A stretch of 36,757 nt of DNA. It comes from Thermoplasmatales archaeon. Lineage in GTDB: Archaea; Thermoplasmatota; JASEFT01; JAUWIS01. The DNA lies in assembly GCA_030019485.1 (NCBI GenBank), contig JASEEW010000001.1, forward strand, positions 1 through 36,757, given 5' to 3'. The position numbers and the translations under genes are program-made. Below, piece by piece: positions 2,019 to 15,476 of this stretch (within the stretch, counting starts at the first letter, position 1; every line of letters starts with the position of its first letter). The notes under the pieces were generated by a model. The model worked only from the letters and a program-made list of their open reading frames with translations, was not told where the DNA came from and ran no database searches.

Positions 2019-3152
2019 ATGAAAATACTTTATTTAGCACCGTGTCAACCATTTCCAGCACCTCATGCGGGTTTCACTCATACATACAATATGACAAAAA
2101 ACCTACAAGCATTGGGTCATGACATCCATGTTGTTGCCAGATATACAAAAAAAACCGATATAGGATGCTGCATAGAATATGATAACCTACCGGTATATTA
2201 TGTAGATTGGTCCATACATAGTTTACCTAAATTCATAAACTCATTTGTTCATACTTTGAAAGTTATTGATGATGTGGACATAATCCATGAGCGGTTTGAG
2301 GTGCCAGGCGGTGCTGGAATTATATATAGCAAAATGTTTAATATACCAAGTATCTTAGAGGTAAACGATCCTTTTCTTGATAAACAACCTACCAAAAATT
2401 TACCTCAGAAAATTAGGGGTTTCATGATGGGGGGGAACAGGTCATGGCAACTGAGATCCTTCTCAGGGATTGTTACCCAAACGAGGATATTAAAAAACAT
2501 AATTTCAAAAGAAACAAACGTGCCTATAGAGATTGTTCCTAATGGTGTAAACCCTTCATTTTTTAATCCTGATGTAAAATCAGTATATACCTCTGATAAA
2601 AAGGTTATAGGATTTGTTGGGGCGTTCGAAAAATGGCATGGGGTAAATGATTTAATAGATGCTTTTAAAATAGTCAGGAAAAAAGAAAATGTAAAACTGT
2701 TGCTTATAGGTGGTGAAAGAAAAAAAATAATTGGGGATATCGTTTTCACAGGCCCTATTCCATACAAAGAGATGCCAGGATATCTAGCTTCTTGTAATAT
2801 CTTAGTTGCGCCATTTAATCCTATGTCAGATGAGAAAAAAAAGGAGATATTCCAAAAATACGGTATGTGGTGGAGCCCACTGAAAATATTTGAGTACATG
2901 GCTGTGGGTAAACCTGTTGTTACATCAAATGTGGGTGTTATACCAGAGTATGTTGAAGATGCAGGTTTGATATACAAAGCAGGGGATATAAAGGATTTAG
3001 CGAGCAAAATTCTTCTATTGCTTGATGATGATAAGTTAGCGGAAAGGTTAGGCAGATGTAGTAGGGAAAAGGTGGTAGAGAGTTATACTTGGGAAAGCCA
3101 GGCAAAGAAAATGATTGAATTTTACAAGAAAACATTAAACATGTTTAAATAA
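2019..3152 (+). CDS. Glycosyltransferase, GT4 (group 1) family
   Basis: 377-aa ORF. It has GT-B architecture with a C-terminal PLKIFEYMAVGKPVVTSNVGVIPE nucleotide-sugar binding region. Divergent from the 863-1942 GT. Confidence 0.8.
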   Translation: MKILYLAPCQPFPAPHAGFTHTYNMTKNLQALGHDIHVVARYTKKTDIGCCIEYDNLPVYYVDWSIHSLPKFINSFVHTLKVIDDVDIIHERFEVPGGAGIIYSKMFNIPSILEVNDPFLDKQPTKNLPQKIRGFMMGGNRSWQLRSFSGIVTQTRILKNIISKETNVPIEIVPNGVNPSFFNPDVKSVYTSDKKVIGFVGAFEKWHGVNDLIDAFKIVRKKENVKLLLIGGERKKIIGDIVFTGPIPYKEMPGYLASCNILVAPFNPMSDEKKKEIFQKYGMWWSPLKIFEYMAVGKPVVTSNVGVIPEYVEDAGLIYKAGDIKDLASKILLLLDDDKLAERLGRCSREKVVESYTWESQAKKMIEFYKKTLNMFK

Positions 3153-3801
3153 GCCTTCTTGCTTTGATAACTATCCCCATTGATCTATAAATTTTCAAAA
3201 ATTTTATGTCAAAAACACCTGCTTTTTTAATAACCCTAAGTTTGTTTTTCTCGAGAAGTTTTTCTAAATCCTTAAATGTAAAGTAATGTAGGTGCCCGCC
3301 GTCATATGCTTCTTCGTCATCTGAGGTTTTAGGAAATCTCCCTGCAATTATAGAGATGACGTGTTTCCAATACTGGATATTTGGTGATGAGATAATAAGT
3401 ATCCCACCTTTTTTTATAACCCTACTGAGTTCAGCGGTAAACTTTCTTGGGTCAAAAATGTGCTCTATCACATCGAGACAAATAACAGCATCAAAACAAT
3501 TGTCTTTAAAAGGCAACCCCAGATTGAGATTAGCTTTGACCGCTCTTATCGAAAGTTCTTGTGCTCGTCGAAGTGCTTCCCTCGACAAATCAACACCATA
3601 AATTTCTTTGTATCTATCTTTAACCAATGTAGCAAAACTACCGTTTCCGCATCCGATATCTAATAACCTATCACCTGAACCAACCAACTTCGATGCAATA
3701 TCCATCCTAGAGCCTGTCTCTACTTTTCTACTCTCTTTTAATTTTCTAGCCCATATCTCGTCGTATATCTTTGTTATTTTTACAGTTAGCACAACACTCA
3801 C
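3145..3801 (-). CDS. Class I SAM-dependent methyltransferase
   Basis: 218 aa. Motif I is LLDIGCGNGSF, with an acidic residue at the end of beta-2 (YGVDLS) and the post-I/II motifs DAVICLDVIEHI. The 3' end overlaps the convergent GT by 8 bp. Confidence 0.8.
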   Translation of the reverse strand: MSVVLTVKITKIYDEIWARKLKESRKVETGSRMDIASKLVGSGDRLLDIGCGNGSFATLVKDRYKEIYGVDLSREALRRAQELSIRAVKANLNLGLPFKDNCFDAVICLDVIEHIFDPRKFTAELSRVIKKGGILIISSPNIQYWKHVISIIAGRFPKTSDDEEAYDGGHLHYFTFKDLEKLLEKNKLRVIKKAGVFDIKFLKIYRSMGIVIKARRLI

Positions 3802-8770: not shown

Positions 8771-9637
8771 TTAATCCTGATGTATTCCTATTTGTTTTTT
8801 CAAATAAGTTATCAGTTCATTTCTCAAATCATTTCTTTCCAATGATAATGCAATGTTTGCCTTTACCCAATCAATCTTTGTTCCAATATCATATCTTTTC
8901 CCTTTGAACTCATACGCATAAACATCATGATTTTTTCTTAGAAGATTTAAGGCATCTGTCAATTGTATTTCGTTGTTTATTCCGGGTTTTGTTTTTTTGA
9001 TGCAATCAAAAATATTTGGTGTTAGAACATATCTTCCAAGCATTGCAAGATTTGATGGGGCCTTCCCAGGCAATGGCTTTTCTACCAGACTCTCTATGAA
9101 ATAAACATTGTCATCAATTTTTTTTCCCTTAATCACACCATATTTACACAGTTTTTCTTTAGATATTTTCTCGATGCATACAACAGATTTTTTGTATTTA
9201 TTGAAAACATCAATAAGCTGCTTTGTGCACGCTGTTTTATCTGTAGTTATGTCATCACCAAGCAGGACTGCAAAAGGTTCATTTCCAACAAATTCTTTAG
9301 CACAAAGAATCGCATCACCTAATCCTTTCTGCTCCTTCTGCCTGATGAAATGGACATGTGCCATGTTTGATATTTCCTGAACCTTTTTTAATTCATCAGT
9401 TTTCCCGGCTCTTTTAAGAAGGTGTTCTAGTTCAAATGATTTGTCAAAATGGTCCTCAATAGCCCTCTTACCTCTACCGGTGATTATAATTATATCTTTT
9501 ATACCCGAGAACACTGCCTCCTCAACAACATACTGTATCGCAGGTTTGTCTACCAATGGGAGCATTTCCTTTGGTTGAGCCTTTGTTGCTGGTAGAAATC
9601 TTGTTCCCAAACCAGCTGCTGGTATTACTGCCTTCAT
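8771..9637 (-). CDS. galU: UTP--glucose-1-phosphate uridylyltransferase
   Basis: MKAVIPAAGLGTRFLPATKAQPKEMLPLVDKP..GLGDAIL..VLLGDD is the canonical GalU signature. ATG at 9637; the listed first M at 9640 is a TTG. Confidence 0.9.
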   Translation of the reverse strand: MKAVIPAAGLGTRFLPATKAQPKEMLPLVDKPAIQYVVEEAVFSGIKDIIIITGRGKRAIEDHFDKSFELEHLLKRAGKTDELKKVQEISNMAHVHFIRQKEQKGLGDAILCAKEFVGNEPFAVLLGDDITTDKTACTKQLIDVFNKYKKSVVCIEKISKEKLCKYGVIKGKKIDDNVYFIESLVEKPLPGKAPSNLAMLGRYVLTPNIFDCIKKTKPGINNEIQLTDALNLLRKNHDVYAYEFKGKRYDIGTKIDWVKANIALSLERNDLRNELITYLKKQIGIHQD

Positions 9638-9712
9638 CAATGTATTATATAGGTTTTTGGGGTTTTAATTGTTATGTAAAGATTTTTAATCATTGAAAAA
9701 GATAACGTTACC

Positions 9713-11041
9713 ATGAAAATATCAATCATAGGGACAGGATATGTTGGTCTTACTACAGGGATAGCATTTGCCAAGTACGGTTTTAATGTTGTTTGTGTTG
9801 ATAAAGTAAAAGGAAAGATTAAAAGTTTGAGTAATGGTGTTGCGCCTTTTTATGAGCCAGGATTGGGTAAGATACTTAAGAAACTGGTGGATGAACGTTT
9901 GATTGAAGGTTCAACAAATCTTGAAAAAGCTGTAAAAAACAGTGATGTTTCATTTATATGTGTTGGTACACCTTCCTTGCCCAATGGGTTAATAAGTTTA
10001 GAACATGTTAAGGATGCAGCAAAAGATGTTGGAAAAGCATTAGAAAAGAAAAAAGGCTATCATCTTGTTGTCGTAAAAAGTACAGTAACACCTTTAACAA
10101 CAGAAAAAATTGTTTTAGCTTTAATTGAAAAATATTCTAAGAAAAAGGTTGGTAAGGATTTTGGAATTTGCATGAACCCTGAGTTTCTGAGAGAGGGAAA
10201 CGCATTAAATGATGCATTACATCCTGACAGGGTTGTTATGGGTGAATATGACAAAAAAAGTGGTGACATTTTAATGAAACTTTACAGGAACTTTAAATGC
10301 AAAAAAATGAGGACAAAACTTAGAACTGCTGAGATGATTAAATATGCAAGCAATTCTTTTCTCGCAACAAAAATCACGTTTGCAAATGAGATGGCAAACA
10401 TATGTGAAAAATTTGGGATAGATGTTTATGAGGTTATGAAAGGTGTTGGTCTTGATAAAAGAATCTCGCCGTATTTTCTTAACGCAGGGTGTGGGTTTGG
10501 TGGAAGCTGCTTCAAAAAAGATATAAGTGCCATTATTTCTGCATCTAGATCAAAAAACTATACACCGAAACTGCTGGAAACCGTTCTTGATATGAATGAA
10601 ACACAGCCACTACAAATCATAAGAATGGCTGAATCAGTTTTAGGTAATCTAAAAAATAAAAAAATCACATTACTTGGATTATCATTTAAACCAGGAACAG
10701 ATGATGTCAGAGAAACAAGGGCTTTGTCTATTGCAAAAACACTTTTAAAGAAGGGTACAAAAATTATTGCCTATGACCCAAAAGCAATGAAAAATTTTAA
10801 AAAACTAGCTGGGCATAGAAACATTGTGTATGCAAAGAATGCAAAGGCAGCACTGCGAAAAGTTGATGCTTGCATAATTCAAACATCATGGGAAGAGTTT
10901 AAGAATTTAAGACCTAAGGATTTCAAGGTGATGAAAACACCGGTAGTTATCGATGGTAGGAGGACTTTTGATAATACAGAAATTTTTGCTAAAAATGGAA
11001 TAGTTTATCTTGGCATTGGGTGGAAAAATTTCGCGATATAA
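9713..11041 (+). CDS. ugd: UDP-glucose 6-dehydrogenase family (UDP-glucose/GDP-mannose dehydrogenase)
   Basis: N-terminal Rossmann motif ISIIGTGYVGL, catalytic Cys motif GFGGSCFKKD, and a C-terminal UDP-binding domain (GLSFKPGTDDVRET). Confidence 0.9.
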   Translation: MKISIIGTGYVGLTTGIAFAKYGFNVVCVDKVKGKIKSLSNGVAPFYEPGLGKILKKLVDERLIEGSTNLEKAVKNSDVSFICVGTPSLPNGLISLEHVKDAAKDVGKALEKKKGYHLVVVKSTVTPLTTEKIVLALIEKYSKKKVGKDFGICMNPEFLREGNALNDALHPDRVVMGEYDKKSGDILMKLYRNFKCKKMRTKLRTAEMIKYASNSFLATKITFANEMANICEKFGIDVYEVMKGVGLDKRISPYFLNAGCGFGGSCFKKDISAIISASRSKNYTPKLLETVLDMNETQPLQIIRMAESVLGNLKNKKITLLGLSFKPGTDDVRETRALSIAKTLLKKGTKIIAYDPKAMKNFKKLAGHRNIVYAKNAKAALRKVDACIIQTSWEEFKNLRPKDFKVMKTPVVIDGRRTFDNTEIFAKNGIVYLGIGWKNFAI

Positions 11042-11076
11042 CAAAAATTTAAGTACAAGCACGCATATTATCTTTT

Positions 11077-11253
11077 ATGGCGCAGCAAAAGAAAACAAAA
11101 AAAGGCGAGGGTTTTCATTCAGCCGCAGGGCTGATACGCTACTTTGATTCAGAAGAGGAGACAGCATTAAAAATTGACCCGAAACTCGTTATTGCTTTTT
11201 GCATCGGCATTGCCATAATGCTTGAGGTTGTAAGATATTTGTACCCAACATAA
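11077..11253 (+). CDS. secG: Preprotein translocase subunit Sec61-beta / archaeal SecG (58 aa, below the ORF-track cutoff)
   Basis: My own translation is MAQQKKTKKGEGFHSAAGLIRYFDSEEETALKIDPKLVIAFCIGIAIMLEVVRYLYPT. The AGL(I/M)RYFD motif plus a single C-terminal TM helix is the Sec61-beta signature. Confidence 0.75.
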   Translation: MAQQKKTKKGEGFHSAAGLIRYFDSEEETALKIDPKLVIAFCIGIAIMLEVVRYLYPT

Positions 11254-11422
11254 AATTTTGCTCCCAAAAAAATCTGAATAATTTTTAAAAAAAATTCATA
11301 ACTTTTCTTTTTATTTCCAAATTTTTTCAAAACATAGAGAAACATTTATCTGTTAACAATGCATTACCGTTCATGATAAAATTCTATTTTGGAATTTTAT
11401 CAGGTTGTGTAGGAGGTAAGAA

Positions 11423-11491
11423 ATGGCAAAGAAAAAAGCGAAGAAGAAAGCGGTAAAGAAGAAGGGAGCTAAGAAAAAGAGAAGAAGATAG
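11423..11491 (+). CDS. Hypothetical 22-aa poly-Lys/Arg micro-protein
   Basis: ATG at 11423 lies 5 nt after a strong AGGAGGT motif. Translation is MAKKKAKKKAVKKKGAKKKRRR, with a TAG stop. A hairpin and a T-rich tract follow. Confidence 0.35.
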   Translation: MAKKKAKKKAVKKKGAKKKRRR

Positions 11492-11520
11492 ATGCTCTCA
11501 TCTTCTATTTTTTTCTTTTT
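11483..11520. terminator. Hairpin plus T-rich tract between convergent micro-ORF and MtaB-like gene
   Basis: AGAAGATAGA (11483-11492) pairs with TCT-C-ATCTTCT (11496-11506, one bulged C). ATTTTTTTCTTTTTTT follows. Confidence 0.4.
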
Positions 11521-12774
11521 TTAATTTTGTATTACAACACCTTTCAGATACGTATCATATGCATCTATGATTTTTACATCAACAAATCTTCCCAAATCTA
11601 TTTTGTCTTTTATCACAACAGGCCTGTACGCATCTGTCCTGCCAATCACCGTGTTGTTTTTTCCAAACTCTGCTGTGAGTATTTTTTCTTTTCTTCCAAC
11701 AAAAGATTCAAAATTCTTTTTACTGATTTCTAATCTTAGTTTTGAAAGTTTCTTTGTTCTTCCCTTGACAATTTTACTGTCCAATCTTTTCATGGTGTAT
11801 GCCTTTGTTTTCGGTCTCGGTGAAAACGCCTTAACATTAACAATATCCGGTCTTGTTTCTTTAATCAGCTCGCAGCTTTTTTGAAACTGCTGAGATGTTT
11901 CTGTTGGGAAGCCGGCGATAATATCTGTGGAAAGCGTGATGTCGTTAAATGCGCCTCTGAACCTGCGCACAATGTATCTAAAATCATCCACCCTGTAATT
12001 TCTTCCCATCTTTTGAAGTATTTCATCGTCACCGCTCTGAACCGGCAGATGCAGAAACCTGAAAACCTTTTCATCACTGTATGAATCGAGGAGTTCATCA
12101 AGTGCTGGTAAAACGGTGTCAGGGTTCATCATCCCGATTCTGAGTTTGAAATCGCCAGAAATTTTTGTTAGATTGTTAATTAATTCTGGCAAATTTTTGT
12201 CAATGTCCTTTCCATAGGCGCCTGTGTCCTGCGCGGTAATCCTGATTTCCTTGTATCCAAGATTTACTGCCCTTTCAACACATTTCCCTATGCTATCAGG
12301 GGGATAACTTTTTAGATTTTTTCTCGCAATCTTTGTTATGCAGAAAGAACATTTTCCCAGGCATCCTGACGAGATTGGTATGATTGCTTCAACCCGTTTT
12401 TCCTTTCTTTTTGGCGGGTAAGGATATAATTTTGTTTTGTAATTTTTTGTTCCATCAATCATCCCCAGTATTTTGCAGAGCTCATCTGGCGGTAAAATCT
12501 TTGCGGTTGGCGCAATGTTTTTTATTTTTTCTTTTTCAGCAGATGCCATGCATCCTGCAACAACAAGGTTTTTTCCTGTTGAACTAAATTCTTTTATCCT
12601 GTTAATCATTCTTCTCTCTGTGCTTTCAATAACTATGCATGTGGCAAGAACTAGAACATCCGCATCATCAACGTTATTTACTATCTCATGTCTTTCACTT
12701 ACAATGTCTTCCATTATTTTTGCCTCACCATAGTTCATTGAGCATCCATGCGGTTCAAAGTAAACTTTCATCAT
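11521..12774 (-). CDS. MiaB-family radical-SAM methylthiotransferase, archaeal/eukaryal (CDKAL1 / e-MtaB-like) type
   Basis: 417 aa. UPF0004 N-domain (VYFEPHGCSMNYGE), radical-SAM CxxxCxxC (SSGCLGKCSFC) and a C-terminal TRAM-like domain. Confidence 0.85.
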   Translation of the reverse strand: MMKVYFEPHGCSMNYGEAKIMEDIVSERHEIVNNVDDADVLVLATCIVIESTERRMINRIKEFSSTGKNLVVAGCMASAEKEKIKNIAPTAKILPPDELCKILGMIDGTKNYKTKLYPYPPKRKEKRVEAIIPISSGCLGKCSFCITKIARKNLKSYPPDSIGKCVERAVNLGYKEIRITAQDTGAYGKDIDKNLPELINNLTKISGDFKLRIGMMNPDTVLPALDELLDSYSDEKVFRFLHLPVQSGDDEILQKMGRNYRVDDFRYIVRRFRGAFNDITLSTDIIAGFPTETSQQFQKSCELIKETRPDIVNVKAFSPRPKTKAYTMKRLDSKIVKGRTKKLSKLRLEISKKNFESFVGRKEKILTAEFGKNNTVIGRTDAYRPVVIKDKIDLGRFVDVKIIDAYDTYLKGVVIQN

Positions 12775-12864
12775 GATGCATTTGTTTTTGGATATAAAAT
12801 TGTTTTCCTACTGCAAAGTCAAGGAAGATATGCAGCATTGATAAACAAATGAAAGGCGCAATAT

Positions 12865-12925
12865 TACGGAATTTGCTCTGCAAATTCCTAATATTTCAGG
12901 AAAAATGCAGAGCGTTTTTCCGTGA
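12865..12925 (+). repeat. Paired-palindrome element, copy 1 (upstream of bioY)
   Basis: GGAATTTGC-TCT-GCAAATTCC (12868-12888), linker TAATATTTCA, then GGAAAAATGC-AGA-GCGTTTTTCC (12899-12921). Palindrome centres are 32 bp apart. Confidence 0.75.
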
Positions 12926-12932
12926 AAAGTGT

Positions 12933-12956
12933 AAAATGCAAAATATTTTGCATTTT
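12933..12956. repeat. Perfect 24-bp palindrome AAAATGCAAAAT|ATTTTGCATTTT
   Basis: Read directly. It lies between element copies 1 and 2 in the MtaB/bioY divergent intergenic region. Confidence 0.85.
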
Positions 12957-12991
12957 TCAATTTGCATTCTTCATTTTTCACTAGTTATTAT

Positions 12992-13047
12992 GGAAAACGT
13001 TGAAAACGTTTTCCTAATATTTTAGGAAAATGCTTTCGGCATTTTCC
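12992..13047 (+). repeat. Paired-palindrome element, copy 2 (upstream of bioY)
   Basis: GGAAAACGTT-GAA-AACGTTTTCC (12992-13014), linker TAATATTTTA, then GGAAAATGC-TTTCG-GCATTTTCC (13025-13047). Centres are 33 bp apart. Confidence 0.75.
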
Positions 13048-13087
13048 GTAAAATGCAGATGTCTGCTGACTTTACAATAAGCATAGA

Positions 13088-13097
13088 TTTATATATT
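13088..13097 (+). promoter_or_regulatory. Candidate TATA box of bioY
   Basis: TTTATATATT lies ~40 nt upstream of the ATG at 13134 and ~30 nt upstream of the AGGTGA ribosome-binding motif (13124-13129). Confidence 0.4.
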
Positions 13098-13133
13098 CAC
13101 TTATCAATTACCACTTCTCTAAAAGGTGAAAAA

Positions 13134-13751
13134 ATGAACGTGTTCATAGAAGGATACAAAAACAGCATGCACAATTTTTTTAAATGGAGAACTGAAACAA
13201 AATTTGTTTACAAACTTGTGATGTGTTGCTCTTTTGCCTGTTTCACAGGCTTGATGGCACAGCTCAGGTTTTATCTTCCATTCACACCTGTTCCATTAAC
13301 AGGGCAGACATTCGCAGTCCTACTTTCAGGTGTAATACTTGGAAAATACTATGGCGGTCTCAGTCAGGGTATTTATGCAGGACTTGGGTTTGCTGGTGTT
13401 CCATGGTTCGCAAATTGGAGTGGGGGGCCTGCTGTCCTGTTAGGACCAACAGGCGGGTACATAATTGGTTTTATTCTTGCTGCATTATTCATAGGCTGGG
13501 CTGTTGACTCAAATGTTAAGATAAGAAGTTTACCAAGCATGCTTGGTTTAATGCTGTTTGCCGATATAGGGTTAATCCTTATCCCTGGAACATTATGGCT
13601 GTACATATGGCTGAATACTTTTTATCCTGCTGGTATATGGGAAGCAATGCTGATGGGCTTCATTCCTTTTGTAGCAGGTGACGCAGTAAAGGCTTTTGCT
13701 GCTGGAACAGCCGGACGACTGACAATACCAAAAACTGCCTACAGTAGATAA
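13134..13751 (+). CDS. bioY: Biotin transporter BioY (ECF S-component type)
   Basis: PFTPVPLTGQTFAVLLSGVILG..GLGFAGVPWFA..GPTGGYIIGF is the BioY signature. I prefer the start at ATG 13134 (MNVFIEG), which follows AGGTGA. The listed ORF start at 13053 is an upstream extension. Confidence 0.9.
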   Translation: MNVFIEGYKNSMHNFFKWRTETKFVYKLVMCCSFACFTGLMAQLRFYLPFTPVPLTGQTFAVLLSGVILGKYYGGLSQGIYAGLGFAGVPWFANWSGGPAVLLGPTGGYIIGFILAALFIGWAVDSNVKIRSLPSMLGLMLFADIGLILIPGTLWLYIWLNTFYPAGIWEAMLMGFIPFVAGDAVKAFAAGTAGRLTIPKTAYSR

Positions 13752-13755
13752 ATTC

Positions 13756-14136
13756 ATGAAACTAAGAGGGCATCATCTAATATGCTTTCAGTTTTTTAGA
13801 GGAGAAGGATATAGCAAAATTTTTGTGGAAAACGCAAAAAAGATAGCTGAATACTGGGAAAAAAACCCTGCTGAAACAGTAAATCATGCAGATGATATAT
13901 GCGGGTTTTGTCCTTTTCTAAGAAATGGAAAATGCAGTAAATATGAGGATATTGAGAAGAATGATGAACTTGCATTAAAACTCTTAGGATTGAATGTAGG
14001 GGATAAGGTAAGAAAGGGTTTTGTAAAAAAACAGCTGCCAAAAATACTTAATGAATGGAAAGAAAAGGCATGTAAAAATTGTGAGTGGAAAAAACTGTGT
14101 GTATTGGAATATAAAAATATTACATCAAATGGATAA
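13756..14136 (+). CDS. DUF1284-like cysteine-rich protein
   Basis: 126 aa. N-terminal LRGHHLICFQFFRGEGYS and the paired Cys motifs (CGFCPF..C, CKNCEW..C) resemble what I recall of DUF1284. The start is 4 bp after the bioY stop. The 3' end overlaps birA by 17 bp. Confidence 0.55.
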   Translation: MKLRGHHLICFQFFRGEGYSKIFVENAKKIAEYWEKNPAETVNHADDICGFCPFLRNGKCSKYEDIEKNDELALKLLGLNVGDKVRKGFVKKQLPKILNEWKEKACKNCEWKKLCVLEYKNITSNG

Positions 14137-14824
14137 CATCACCTGAAACGATTTTTTCACCAGATTCAAGAACTAATCTGCCATGTTCATCAACATCTAC
14201 TGCTTTTCCATCAATAACCTTGTTTGTTGCTTTTATTTTTACTCTCCTGCCTATTGTGGAGCAGAGTTTTTTGTACTCATCCAAAACATTTTTCTTGGAA
14301 AATTTTTCAAAATTCTTCAGAATACTGTTTAAAACTGCATCCCTGGAAACATTTTTTCCTGTTTCATCATTTATTGATGTTGCTGTTTCCAGGGGTGTTT
14401 TATTTATGTTTACGCCAACACCAACAACAGCAAAATCATCAAGGCACTCGATGAGTATGCCTGAAATTTTTTTGTCCCCCACCATAACATCATTAGGCCA
14501 TTTTAACACTGGGAATAAACCAAAATTTTTTAATGAGACTGCAACAGTGACGCCTGCGATTAATGGAAGCATTGGGTTTTTTTTGGTAGCAATAGAAAAA
14601 TAAAGCCCGCCAAAAGGTGAAAGCCATCCCCTGTTCATTCTTCCCTTTCCTTTTGTCTGCTCATCAGCAACAACAGCAAAATTTTTTTCACCTTTCATTT
14701 CATGGAAAAATGCAGGGCATTTTTCCTGAAATATTAGGAATTTGCTCTGCAAATTCCGTAATAGAACAATTTTTTTTGCCACATCATTTGTTGAAGTTAC
14801 CTTTTTGAAATGATAAATTTTCAC
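14120..14824 (-). CDS. birA: Biotin--protein ligase (BirA catalytic type, no N-terminal HTH), carrying an in-frame insertion
   Basis: IYHFKKVTSTNDVAK .. VVADEQTKGKGRMNRGWLSPFGGLYFS .. LKWPNDV is the BPL signature (GRGR-type loop reads GKGRMNR). GTG start at 14824. There are ~20 extra residues between the STN helix and the VVADEQT strand. Confidence 0.85.
   Translation of the reverse strand: MKIYHFKKVTSTNDVAKKIVLLRNLQSKFLIFQEKCPAFFHEMKGEKNFAVVADEQTKGKGRMNRGWLSPFGGLYFSIATKKNPMLPLIAGVTVAVSLKNFGLFPVLKWPNDVMVGDKKISGILIECLDDFAVVGVGVNINKTPLETATSINDETGKNVSRDAVLNSILKNFEKFSKKNVLDEYKKLCSTIGRRVKIKATNKVIDGKAVDVDEHGRLVLESGEKIVSGDVIHLM
14701..14762 (-). repeat. Paired-palindrome element, copy 3 (inverted), inside the birA reading frame
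   Basis: GGAAAAATGC-AGG-GCATTTTTCC (14704-14726), linker TGAAATATTA, then GGAATTTGC-TCT-GCAAATTCC (14737-14757). The 21-mer is identical to 12868-12888, and the linker is the exact reverse complement of the copy 1 linker. Confidence 0.8.
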
Positions 14825-15369: not shown

Positions 15370-15476
15370 ACTCAGTAGTTAGGGGAGAGCAGTTAGAAGT
15401 TAGGGAACATCTGACTCCTAACTCCTGATCCCTAACTCCTTGCCTTAACCCTTGATCCCTAACTACTCCCATTTTT
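15370..15476 (-). repeat. Intercistronic TTAGGG-unit hairpin element, copy 1 (pycA stop to cupin start)
   Basis: Plus strand: GTAGTTAGGGG..AGTTAGAAGTTAGGGA..TCCTAACTCCTGATCCCTAACTCC..GATCCCTAACTAC. The outer 10-bp arms GTAGTTAGGG/CCCTAACTAC and inner AGTTAGG/CCTAACT arms are complementary. Confidence 0.7.

Follow-up and report, generated by a model that had tools for sequence, protein, structure and literature searches.

We propose, with a probability that we put at about 0.88, that the two palindromic units upstream of bioY, each a double hairpin of 66–68 nt, belong to a lineage-specific family of dispersed palindromic repeats, and that they represent non-autonomous mobile DNA within a composite repeat abutting the bioY promoter. 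The repeats are dispersed through the genome, are confined to a single taxonomic family among the genomes searched, are polymorphic for precise presence or absence at individual sites, and are not conserved at bioY. By analogy, their closest counterparts would be the bacterial REP/BIME/REPIN sequences and the Rickettsia palindromic elements (RPEs), and any influence that they exert on bioY expression would be incidental. The original prediction had read the units as a binding array for a regulator of biotin uptake, an interpretation that fails because the motif is dispersed regardless of gene function and is missing at bioY in relatives; the alternative offered alongside it, copies of a small palindromic mobile element, is favoured by the genome-wide dispersal together with the filled and empty sites described below.

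Within the window, by which we mean the whole 36.8-kb stretch of DNA that was analysed, each of the two units consists of two palindromes of the form GGAA-stem-loop-stem-TTCC linked via TAATATTT(C/T)A. Unit 1 reads TATTAC-GGAATTTGC-TCT-GCAAATTCC-TAATATTTCA-GGAAAAATGC-AGA-GCGTTTTTCC-GTGAAA, with hairpins at 12868-12888 and 12899-12921, and unit 2 reads TATTAT-GGAAAACGTT-GAA-AACGTTTTCC-TAATATTTTA-GGAAAATGC-TTTCG-GCATTTTCC-GTAAAA, with hairpins at 12992-13014 and 13025-13047 (Table 1). The dyad centres are 32 bp and 32.5 bp apart in the two units. When the sequence is read again and compared with shuffles, the paired palindromes with centres 32–33 bp apart prove to be real and far above chance, as originally described, and the window has four occurrences of the 20-nt junction TTCCTAATATTTYAGGAAAA, compared with 0.02 expected from shuffles. 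Folded as single-stranded DNA, each unit, and likewise a third copy situated inside birA, gives two abutting hairpins with one bulged base per outer side, the units folding at -19 to -21 kcal/mol with z-scores of -7.1 to -8.9. The distance between dyad centres had also been thought meaningful in that it corresponds to about three helical turns. The spacing itself stands, but it has no special meaning, as it is the sum of the module length (21–23 nt) and a fixed linker of 10–11 nt, and for this reason it is the same in all arrays genome-wide.

Table 1. Positions of the repeat elements and of the genes and promoter element near them, in window coordinates.
Feature	Position	Strand	Basis or remark
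Composite repeat block holding both units	12812..13076	.	BLAST of the block; imperfect inverted repeat TGCAAAGTCAAGG...CTGACTTTACA at its ends
Unit 1, 66-nt double-hairpin element (a.b doublet) inside the composite block	12862..12927	+	Read and fold
AT-rich middle segment of the block	12928..12985	.	Perfect 24-bp palindrome 12933-12956; outer inverted repeat 12922-12942 / 12961-12981
Unit 2, 68-nt double-hairpin element (a.b doublet)	12986..13053	+	In every block copy covering that part
bioY TATA box, TATA-like TTTATATATT	13088..13097	+	Conserved in relatives; starts 12 bp past the right end of the block
bioY (BioY family biotin transporter)	13134..13751	+	ATG at 13134; Pfam BioY recorded on orthologues
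birA (group I biotin-protein ligase, without HTH)	14120..14824	-	Homologue comparison, Pfam
Third double-hairpin copy, in frame within birA, adding 22 residues (LRNLQSKFLIFQEKCPAFFHEM)	14697..14762	-	Empty in 12 close BirA homologues

The basic module has the structure AT-NN-TA-(C)-GGAA-variable stem-loop-stem-TTCC-(G)-TA-NN-AT, and neighbouring hairpins share the central AT of a linker of fixed length (10–11 nt, TAANATNTTA), which has one of these two lengths at 123 of 125 junctions. An outer 6-bp stem (ATNNTA/TANNAT) is set off from the GGAA/TTCC foot by a single bulged base, situated as a C on the 5' arm in what we will refer to as the 'a' form and as a G on the 3' arm in the 'b' form. Across the 125 junctions there is no bulge in 61, a G only in 30, a C only in 26 and both in none, and the central AT of the 10-nt linker is conserved in 60 of 61. 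The arrays follow the order a^m b^n, mostly with m = n, such that bulged-C hairpins lie to the left and bulged-G hairpins to the right, the reverse order never being seen. There are 79 arrays of two to six modules, in which the tagged ends point outward; the outer bases are C...G in 49 of 77 arrays, and the module ends read (T)TACGG and CCGTAA, CCGTGA or CCGTCG. It is the shape of the module and not its sequence that is conserved, because pairing is maintained while the arms vary: in a set of 115 modules anchored only on the flanks TACGGAA...TTCCTA, 96 show five or more perfect interior pairs, where shuffling gives a mean of 0.39, and the same set holds 27 different 5-nt arms with all four Watson-Crick pair types at stem positions 3–4.

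The genome is a fragmented draft (1.69 Mb in 221 contigs, 87.9% complete) and the counts given for it are lower bounds. With up to two mismatches the junction is matched 46 times in the genome and 0 times in the control. Perfect-stem modules number 246, compared with 6 in the reversed genome, and are arranged in 144 arrays of one to six modules, figures that rise to 301 modules (17 in the reversed genome) and 176 arrays when one stem mismatch is allowed; the modules are 18–27 nt long and are found on most contigs. An operator, it had been argued, would be restricted to biotin or carboxylase genes, and this restriction is contradicted by a slightly generalised genome scan for the dyad pair, which returns 91 matches on 54 contigs and none in the control. 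The density of the window is itself unremarkable, with 3 arrays in 36.8 kb compared with about 3.8 expected from 176 arrays in 1.69 Mb.

Host and neighbouring genes identified by Pfam have unrelated functions and include a GCD14 tRNA methyltransferase, DUF63, a Na/Ca exchanger, an OB-fold protein, a His_biosynth protein and an intein-bearing protein. Crude ORFs, which cover 87% of the genome, contain 26% of the arrays, several of the ORFs concerned being 5' leaders or spurious. For the intergenic arrays, the numbers in tandem, convergent and divergent spacers simply follow the length of these spacers, so there is no preference for promoter regions or gene ends. Arrays of two to four modules that are in frame and free of stops are found at C38:3845-3945, C174:3886-4019, C132:3160-3227, C82:5644-5711, C181:~11030-11097, C35:1802-1957 and C19:1251-1318, although all of these intragenic copies were found by seeking spanning ORFs and are subject to that ascertainment. 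Their hosts include each of the functions listed above (the methyltransferase being GCD14/TrmI, and the intein-bearing protein carrying its array in the N-extein), and the Pfam GCD14 domain spans its module insert.

Outside this genome the repeats have a narrow distribution. Among 401 genomes of the phylum the junction is present in numbers only here (70) and in the sole other member of the family, G001 (57), which NCBI names 'Methanobacteriota archaeon CSMAG_2300', other relatives being named 'Thermoplasmata archaeon'. A degenerate-junction scan of genome contigs gives mostly single chance matches in unrelated bacteria, only the G001 contigs being real, and the viral contigs searched give 0 matches; among 80 metagenome contigs with the junction, 54 carry at least two modules. 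Fourteen G001 arrays have both flanks mapping here, and at 12 of these the site is empty in this genome. Filled and empty alleles have exact boundaries at birA (66 nt), at the Na/Ca-exchanger gene (66 nt) and at the DUF63 gene (132 nt), the latter two sites being filled here (as are those on C132 and C174) and precisely empty in G001. The insertion boundaries are AT...AT, and about ten filled/empty pairs reveal no target duplication and no target consensus, apart from ambiguities of 1–2 nt.

Both upstream units turn out to be parts of a single 265-nt composite repeat, which the original prediction overlooked. In the window a divergent methylthiotransferase-like gene starts at 12774, and the block occupies the space from the core promoter of this gene to the bioY TATA box, its right end lying 11 nt before the latter. 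The block ends, TG(Y)AAAGTCA...TGACTTTACA, are the same in C57, in C188/C170 and in L282-type loci, and similarity breaks off at these ends in all contexts compared. A second copy in this genome is split across two contig ends, C188:14675-14825 and the reverse complement of C170:2475-2415: the former has the left arm and the middle segment and breaks off after the beginning of unit 2, and the latter supplies the remainder of unit 2 and the right arm at 100% identity, the join being inferred from a 9-nt overlap. Unit 1 is absent from C188, which reads GTTCAA^AGTGCAAAG at this position, and is present in the L282-type block copies. The second copy lies after a radical-SAM-like gene and, judged by eye, continues into the 3' end of a gene on the other strand, so that it appears to sit between convergent genes. 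Metagenome loci L282, L251, L211, L205 and L266 carry the block at 93% identity over 260 nt; in L282 it occupies 9482-9741, after a hexapeptide-repeat gene and approximately 685 nt upstream of a 16S rRNA gene (10426-11936), and no bioY or birA homologue is found in the 80 metagenome loci scanned. The middle segment recurs at C188:14730-14791 (94%) and C44:60-115 (86%), with a partial copy at the end of C119. We read the block as an insertion and not as a conserved control region, and the operator-like spacing and pairing are properties of block and module geometry.

The gene order around one copy of the middle segment is also of note. In L028 a small Cys-rich gene, itself located after a transketolase gene, directly precedes bioY (L028 1891-2371), whereas in this genome (C119:3888-4187 / C44:1-120) the Cys-rich gene is followed by the middle-segment copy and a convergent beta-CASP RNase gene, with bioY situated elsewhere. 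As the bioY neighbourhood differs between the two, a rearrangement breakpoint coincides with the repeat.

In relatives the promoter of bioY is retained and the units are not. An alignment of four lineages contains only TTATATAT, TCAATTA and AAAGGTGA as conserved non-coding blocks; the TATA box, TCAATTA and the ribosome-binding site are kept, and there is zero conservation upstream of the TATA box. G001 has the same bioY TATA box, 5' UTR and start codon, directly past the stop codon of the upstream gene, and 0 modules. The L029-L032 lineage retains bioY-DUF1284-birA and has no module upstream of bioY. Conservation of an operator at this position, which the original reading implied, is therefore contradicted in G001 and in L029-L032, both of which keep bioY-DUF1284-birA. 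L028 has a different, non-orthologous array of 5–6 modules abutting the bioY TATA box, with one doublet in the opposite orientation. Separately, the TCAATTA box, which lies between the TATA box and the ribosome-binding site (within 13098-13133 of the window) and is invariant in the four lineages, is the only conserved non-coding sequence that could be a genuine control or initiator element of bioY.

The copy inside birA, which is 66 nt long and inverted and contains the fourth of the junction occurrences in the window, had likewise been overlooked. In nucleotides the insert reads ATTACGG...CCATGAAAT and lies between GCTCT and GAAAGG. When BirA alleles are compared, three have the 22-residue insert and 12 close relatives are exactly without it. 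Its closest paralogue in this genome is unit 1 (88% over 66 nt), and a G001 paralogue differs from it at 4 of 65 positions. The insert is 66/66 identical in this genome, in G001 (L010 1407-1472) and in L028 (257-322), while the rest of birA is 81–84% identical and differences resume 4–12 nt outside the insert; neutral decay would predict about 12 differences per pair. The birA allele of L027 is 96.4% identical to that of L028 and precisely lacks the insert, and the birA-type hairpin 28-mer has zero matches in the metagenome scan. This perfect identity is at odds with simple neutral junk DNA, and candidate explanations are selection on the insert, site-specific re-insertion, or precise loss together with recent spread. 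It is the sole observation that lends weight to an operator, discussed below, and it concerns the birA copy and not the units upstream of bioY.

Freely co-varying stems, one constant bulged base and the lack of target duplication suggest that the elements may move as structured single strands that are recognised by shape. They would probably be mobilised in trans by an enzyme of the HUH/Y1 type (IS200/IS605 TnpA- or RAYT-like), and they are like the substrates of IS200/IS605 and REP-RAYT systems in their hairpin ends, constant extrahelical base, scarless presence or absence and lack of target duplication. In this model arrays would grow as doublets insert, in nested fashion, at the AT in the middle of a junction that is already there; arrays of the form a^m b^n, mostly with m = n, are what is expected if an a.b doublet inserts into the junction AT. 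Matches to the PF01797 Y1 transposase in this 87.9%-complete genome are only degenerate IS200-like copies with different end hairpins, and one of their end hairpins, GGAAAAC...GTTTTCC, resembles the modules in form only; an intact gene may be missing from the assembly. No transposase gene flanked by modules was found in the genome and no tnpA in the metagenome loci that bear modules, the only TnpB gene (C183) is on a contig without modules, and clustering of ORFs from 54 metagenome loci for a recurrent gene beside the repeats yields no transposase candidate.

The genome's own Y1 (IS200-type) transposase was considered as the mobiliser and rejected, as its copies are frameshifted or truncated and have other end hairpins. 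The decayed IS200-like copies, with Y1 frameshifted or truncated, are situated at C176:1045-1471(-), C63:58-201 and 2980-3197, C209:168-388, C97:4660-4872 and C34:940-1053. In two of them, C63a and C209, the loop of the right-end hairpin CCCAGCC...GGCTGGG holds a double-hairpin insertion of about 60 nt that is absent from C63b, and this looks like a second small hairpin family that targets a hairpin loop.

A stronger version of this mechanism, which we consider unlikely, is that the elements constitute an undescribed archaeal hairpin-transposon system with shape-only recognition, targeting of its own junctions and scarless entry and exit, the birA member having become fixed for function or being subject to site-specific 'homing'. 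If true, such a system with a fixed or homing birA member would explain why the birA copy is identical in lineages that are 16–19% diverged in the flanks, and the fixed or homing member would also explain the 96.4%-identical allele without the insert.

An RNA-level role, in which the hairpins serve as terminators, insulators of divergent promoters or stabilisers of mRNA and are retained for that role, strikes us as improbable. It would fit the T-rich tract that comes after the first hairpin in each unit, a terminator-like arrangement (2 sites compared with 0.3 expected), the preservation of stems by covariation, and the fact that bacterial REPs have such functions (PMC3733652, PMC12306157). 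However, array numbers track spacer length whether the spacer is tandem, convergent or divergent, the arrays are found in both orientations and also within coding sequences, and they turn over fast between genera, 12 of 14 sites not being shared. An Rfam search of the units returns no family at the gathering threshold, which also counts against this role and leads us to reject a known RNA family. An RNA-level role is, moreover, compatible with a mobile origin.

That the copies at bioY and birA have been recruited as an operator, with a dimeric regulator (biotin-related or global) binding the GGAA...TTCC feet, is very improbable. The identity of the birA copy at all 66 positions in three diverged lineages would be in keeping with it, as would the presence of three arrays inside 2 kb at the biotin locus and the rare GGAAAAATGC stem shared by the doublet upstream of bioY in L028. 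The nearest paralogue of the birA copy in the genome is also unit 1, upstream of bioY, although this likeness is explained by local hopping from the birA copy. Against recruitment, G001 and L029-L032 have no units upstream of bioY despite a conserved promoter and 5' UTR, and the L028 array is composed and oriented differently and lies at a different distance. The block as a whole is found again next to a 16S rRNA gene and, it appears, in a spacer where genes converge; the sequence of the inner stems is free to vary, and the window, as noted, is not enriched in arrays. BirA is without a DNA-binding domain; the absence of an HTH had been pointed out at the outset and is borne out by Pfam, which finds only BPL_LplA_LipB and BPL_C. 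Chance palindromes, finally, are ruled out by the shuffles and by the reversed-genome controls.

Returning to the reading of the units as dispersed repeats, their resemblance to REP, BIME and REPIN sequences (PMC3733652, PMC2817692, PMC3116915) lies in short imperfect palindromes (21–23 nt plus feet) that are dispersed in hundreds of copies, mostly extragenic, and arranged in regularly spaced inverted pairs whose tagged ends face out ('HH dimers') and in larger clusters; in both, the stems vary with pairing kept, the sequences are lineage-specific and intragenic copies occur. They differ in their archaeal host, in their end tag, which is (T)ACGG / CCGT(A/G/C) and not GTAG or CGTC, only the CGT core resembling the CGTC tag, in a linker that is fixed at 10–11 nt and whose central AT is shared, and in a strict a^m b^n grammar, and no repeat-flanked RAYT gene was found in this 87.9%-complete draft. 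The GTAG and CGTC tags define two REP superfamilies (PMC3733652, PMC2817692, PMC3116915), and because neither tag and no RAYT was found we file the repeats as a REP-like family and not as a member of those superfamilies. With the Rickettsia palindromic elements (PMC10969869, PMC3733652) they share residence in frame in functional coding genes, to which a peptide segment is added, and the inserts in birA, the Na/Ca exchanger and DUF63 are in frame, free of stops, within conserved protein domains and empty in orthologues. There is, however, no sequence relation, and the elements described here are 66 nt long compared with about 100–150 nt, are modular and archaeal, and are for the most part intergenic.

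The composite block, for its part, is comparable to MITEs, including those of the archaea Sulfolobus, Halobacterium and Haloquadratum (PMC10969869), in its non-coding build, its imperfect terminal inverted repeats and its presence at sites that are non-homologous, both in this genome and in a relative. Unlike MITEs it is seen without a target-site duplication, the flanks of the three block contexts sharing none, and without a parent IS with matching ends, no other element bearing the ends of the block being found in the genome; it also carries nested double-hairpin elements of another, far commoner family. With two copies only in this genome, the block could be a segment that was duplicated and not a unit that transposes. 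Pneumococcal BOX elements have the modular structure boxA-boxB(n)-boxC, and the arrays are like them in having defined ends that enclose hairpin-forming modules in variable number, although sequences and hosts are unrelated and all modules here are of one hairpin type, with orientation flipping at the array centre. Known biotin operators (the bioO of BirA-HTH, and the BioQ and BioR sites) have in common with the units a dyad symmetry upstream of a biotin gene, whereas the motif here is neither biotin-restricted nor conserved in relatives, and it has no cognate regulator, BirA being without an HTH.

To our knowledge, what is understood of REP-type elements and of how they are mobilised comes almost entirely from bacteria. 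For archaea there are generic reports of palindromic repeats (PMC12306157), and no description of this archaeal repeat family was found in the literature. The family is a new archaeal example of REP/RPE-like DNA, and a REP/BIME-like and RPE-like family is thereby documented in an uncultured, Thermoplasmata-like archaeal lineage. It offers clean filled/empty pairs, arrays with a strict grammar, and copies that reside in frame in essential genes. For annotation, a false lead is removed, as nothing here speaks for a new biotin regulator, and dyads close to promoters in this lineage need first to be compared with the repeat family. The repeats also explain much of the fragmentation of these MAGs, as many contigs terminate in them.

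Two further observations concern other palindromic sequences. A G-rich palindromic repeat, AGTAGTTAGGGG / CCCTAACTACT, is situated at 15374-15467 of the window and at C135:~8958-9035, where it splits a T-arm-like sequence (GGGAGTTCAAA|TCTCCC) that is unbroken in G001; ARAGORN finds no tRNA at the T-arm-like sequence in this genome or in G001. Also on C135, a hairpin at 9082-9116 is common to the orthologous site in G001 (L182:401-438), one of few such hairpins shared between the two genera, and it shows compensatory changes (GGAATTTCC...GGAAATTCC compared with GGAATTGCC...GGCAATTCC). As this hairpin is without the TAC/GTA ends, it may be a conserved structural hairpin and not a mobile copy.
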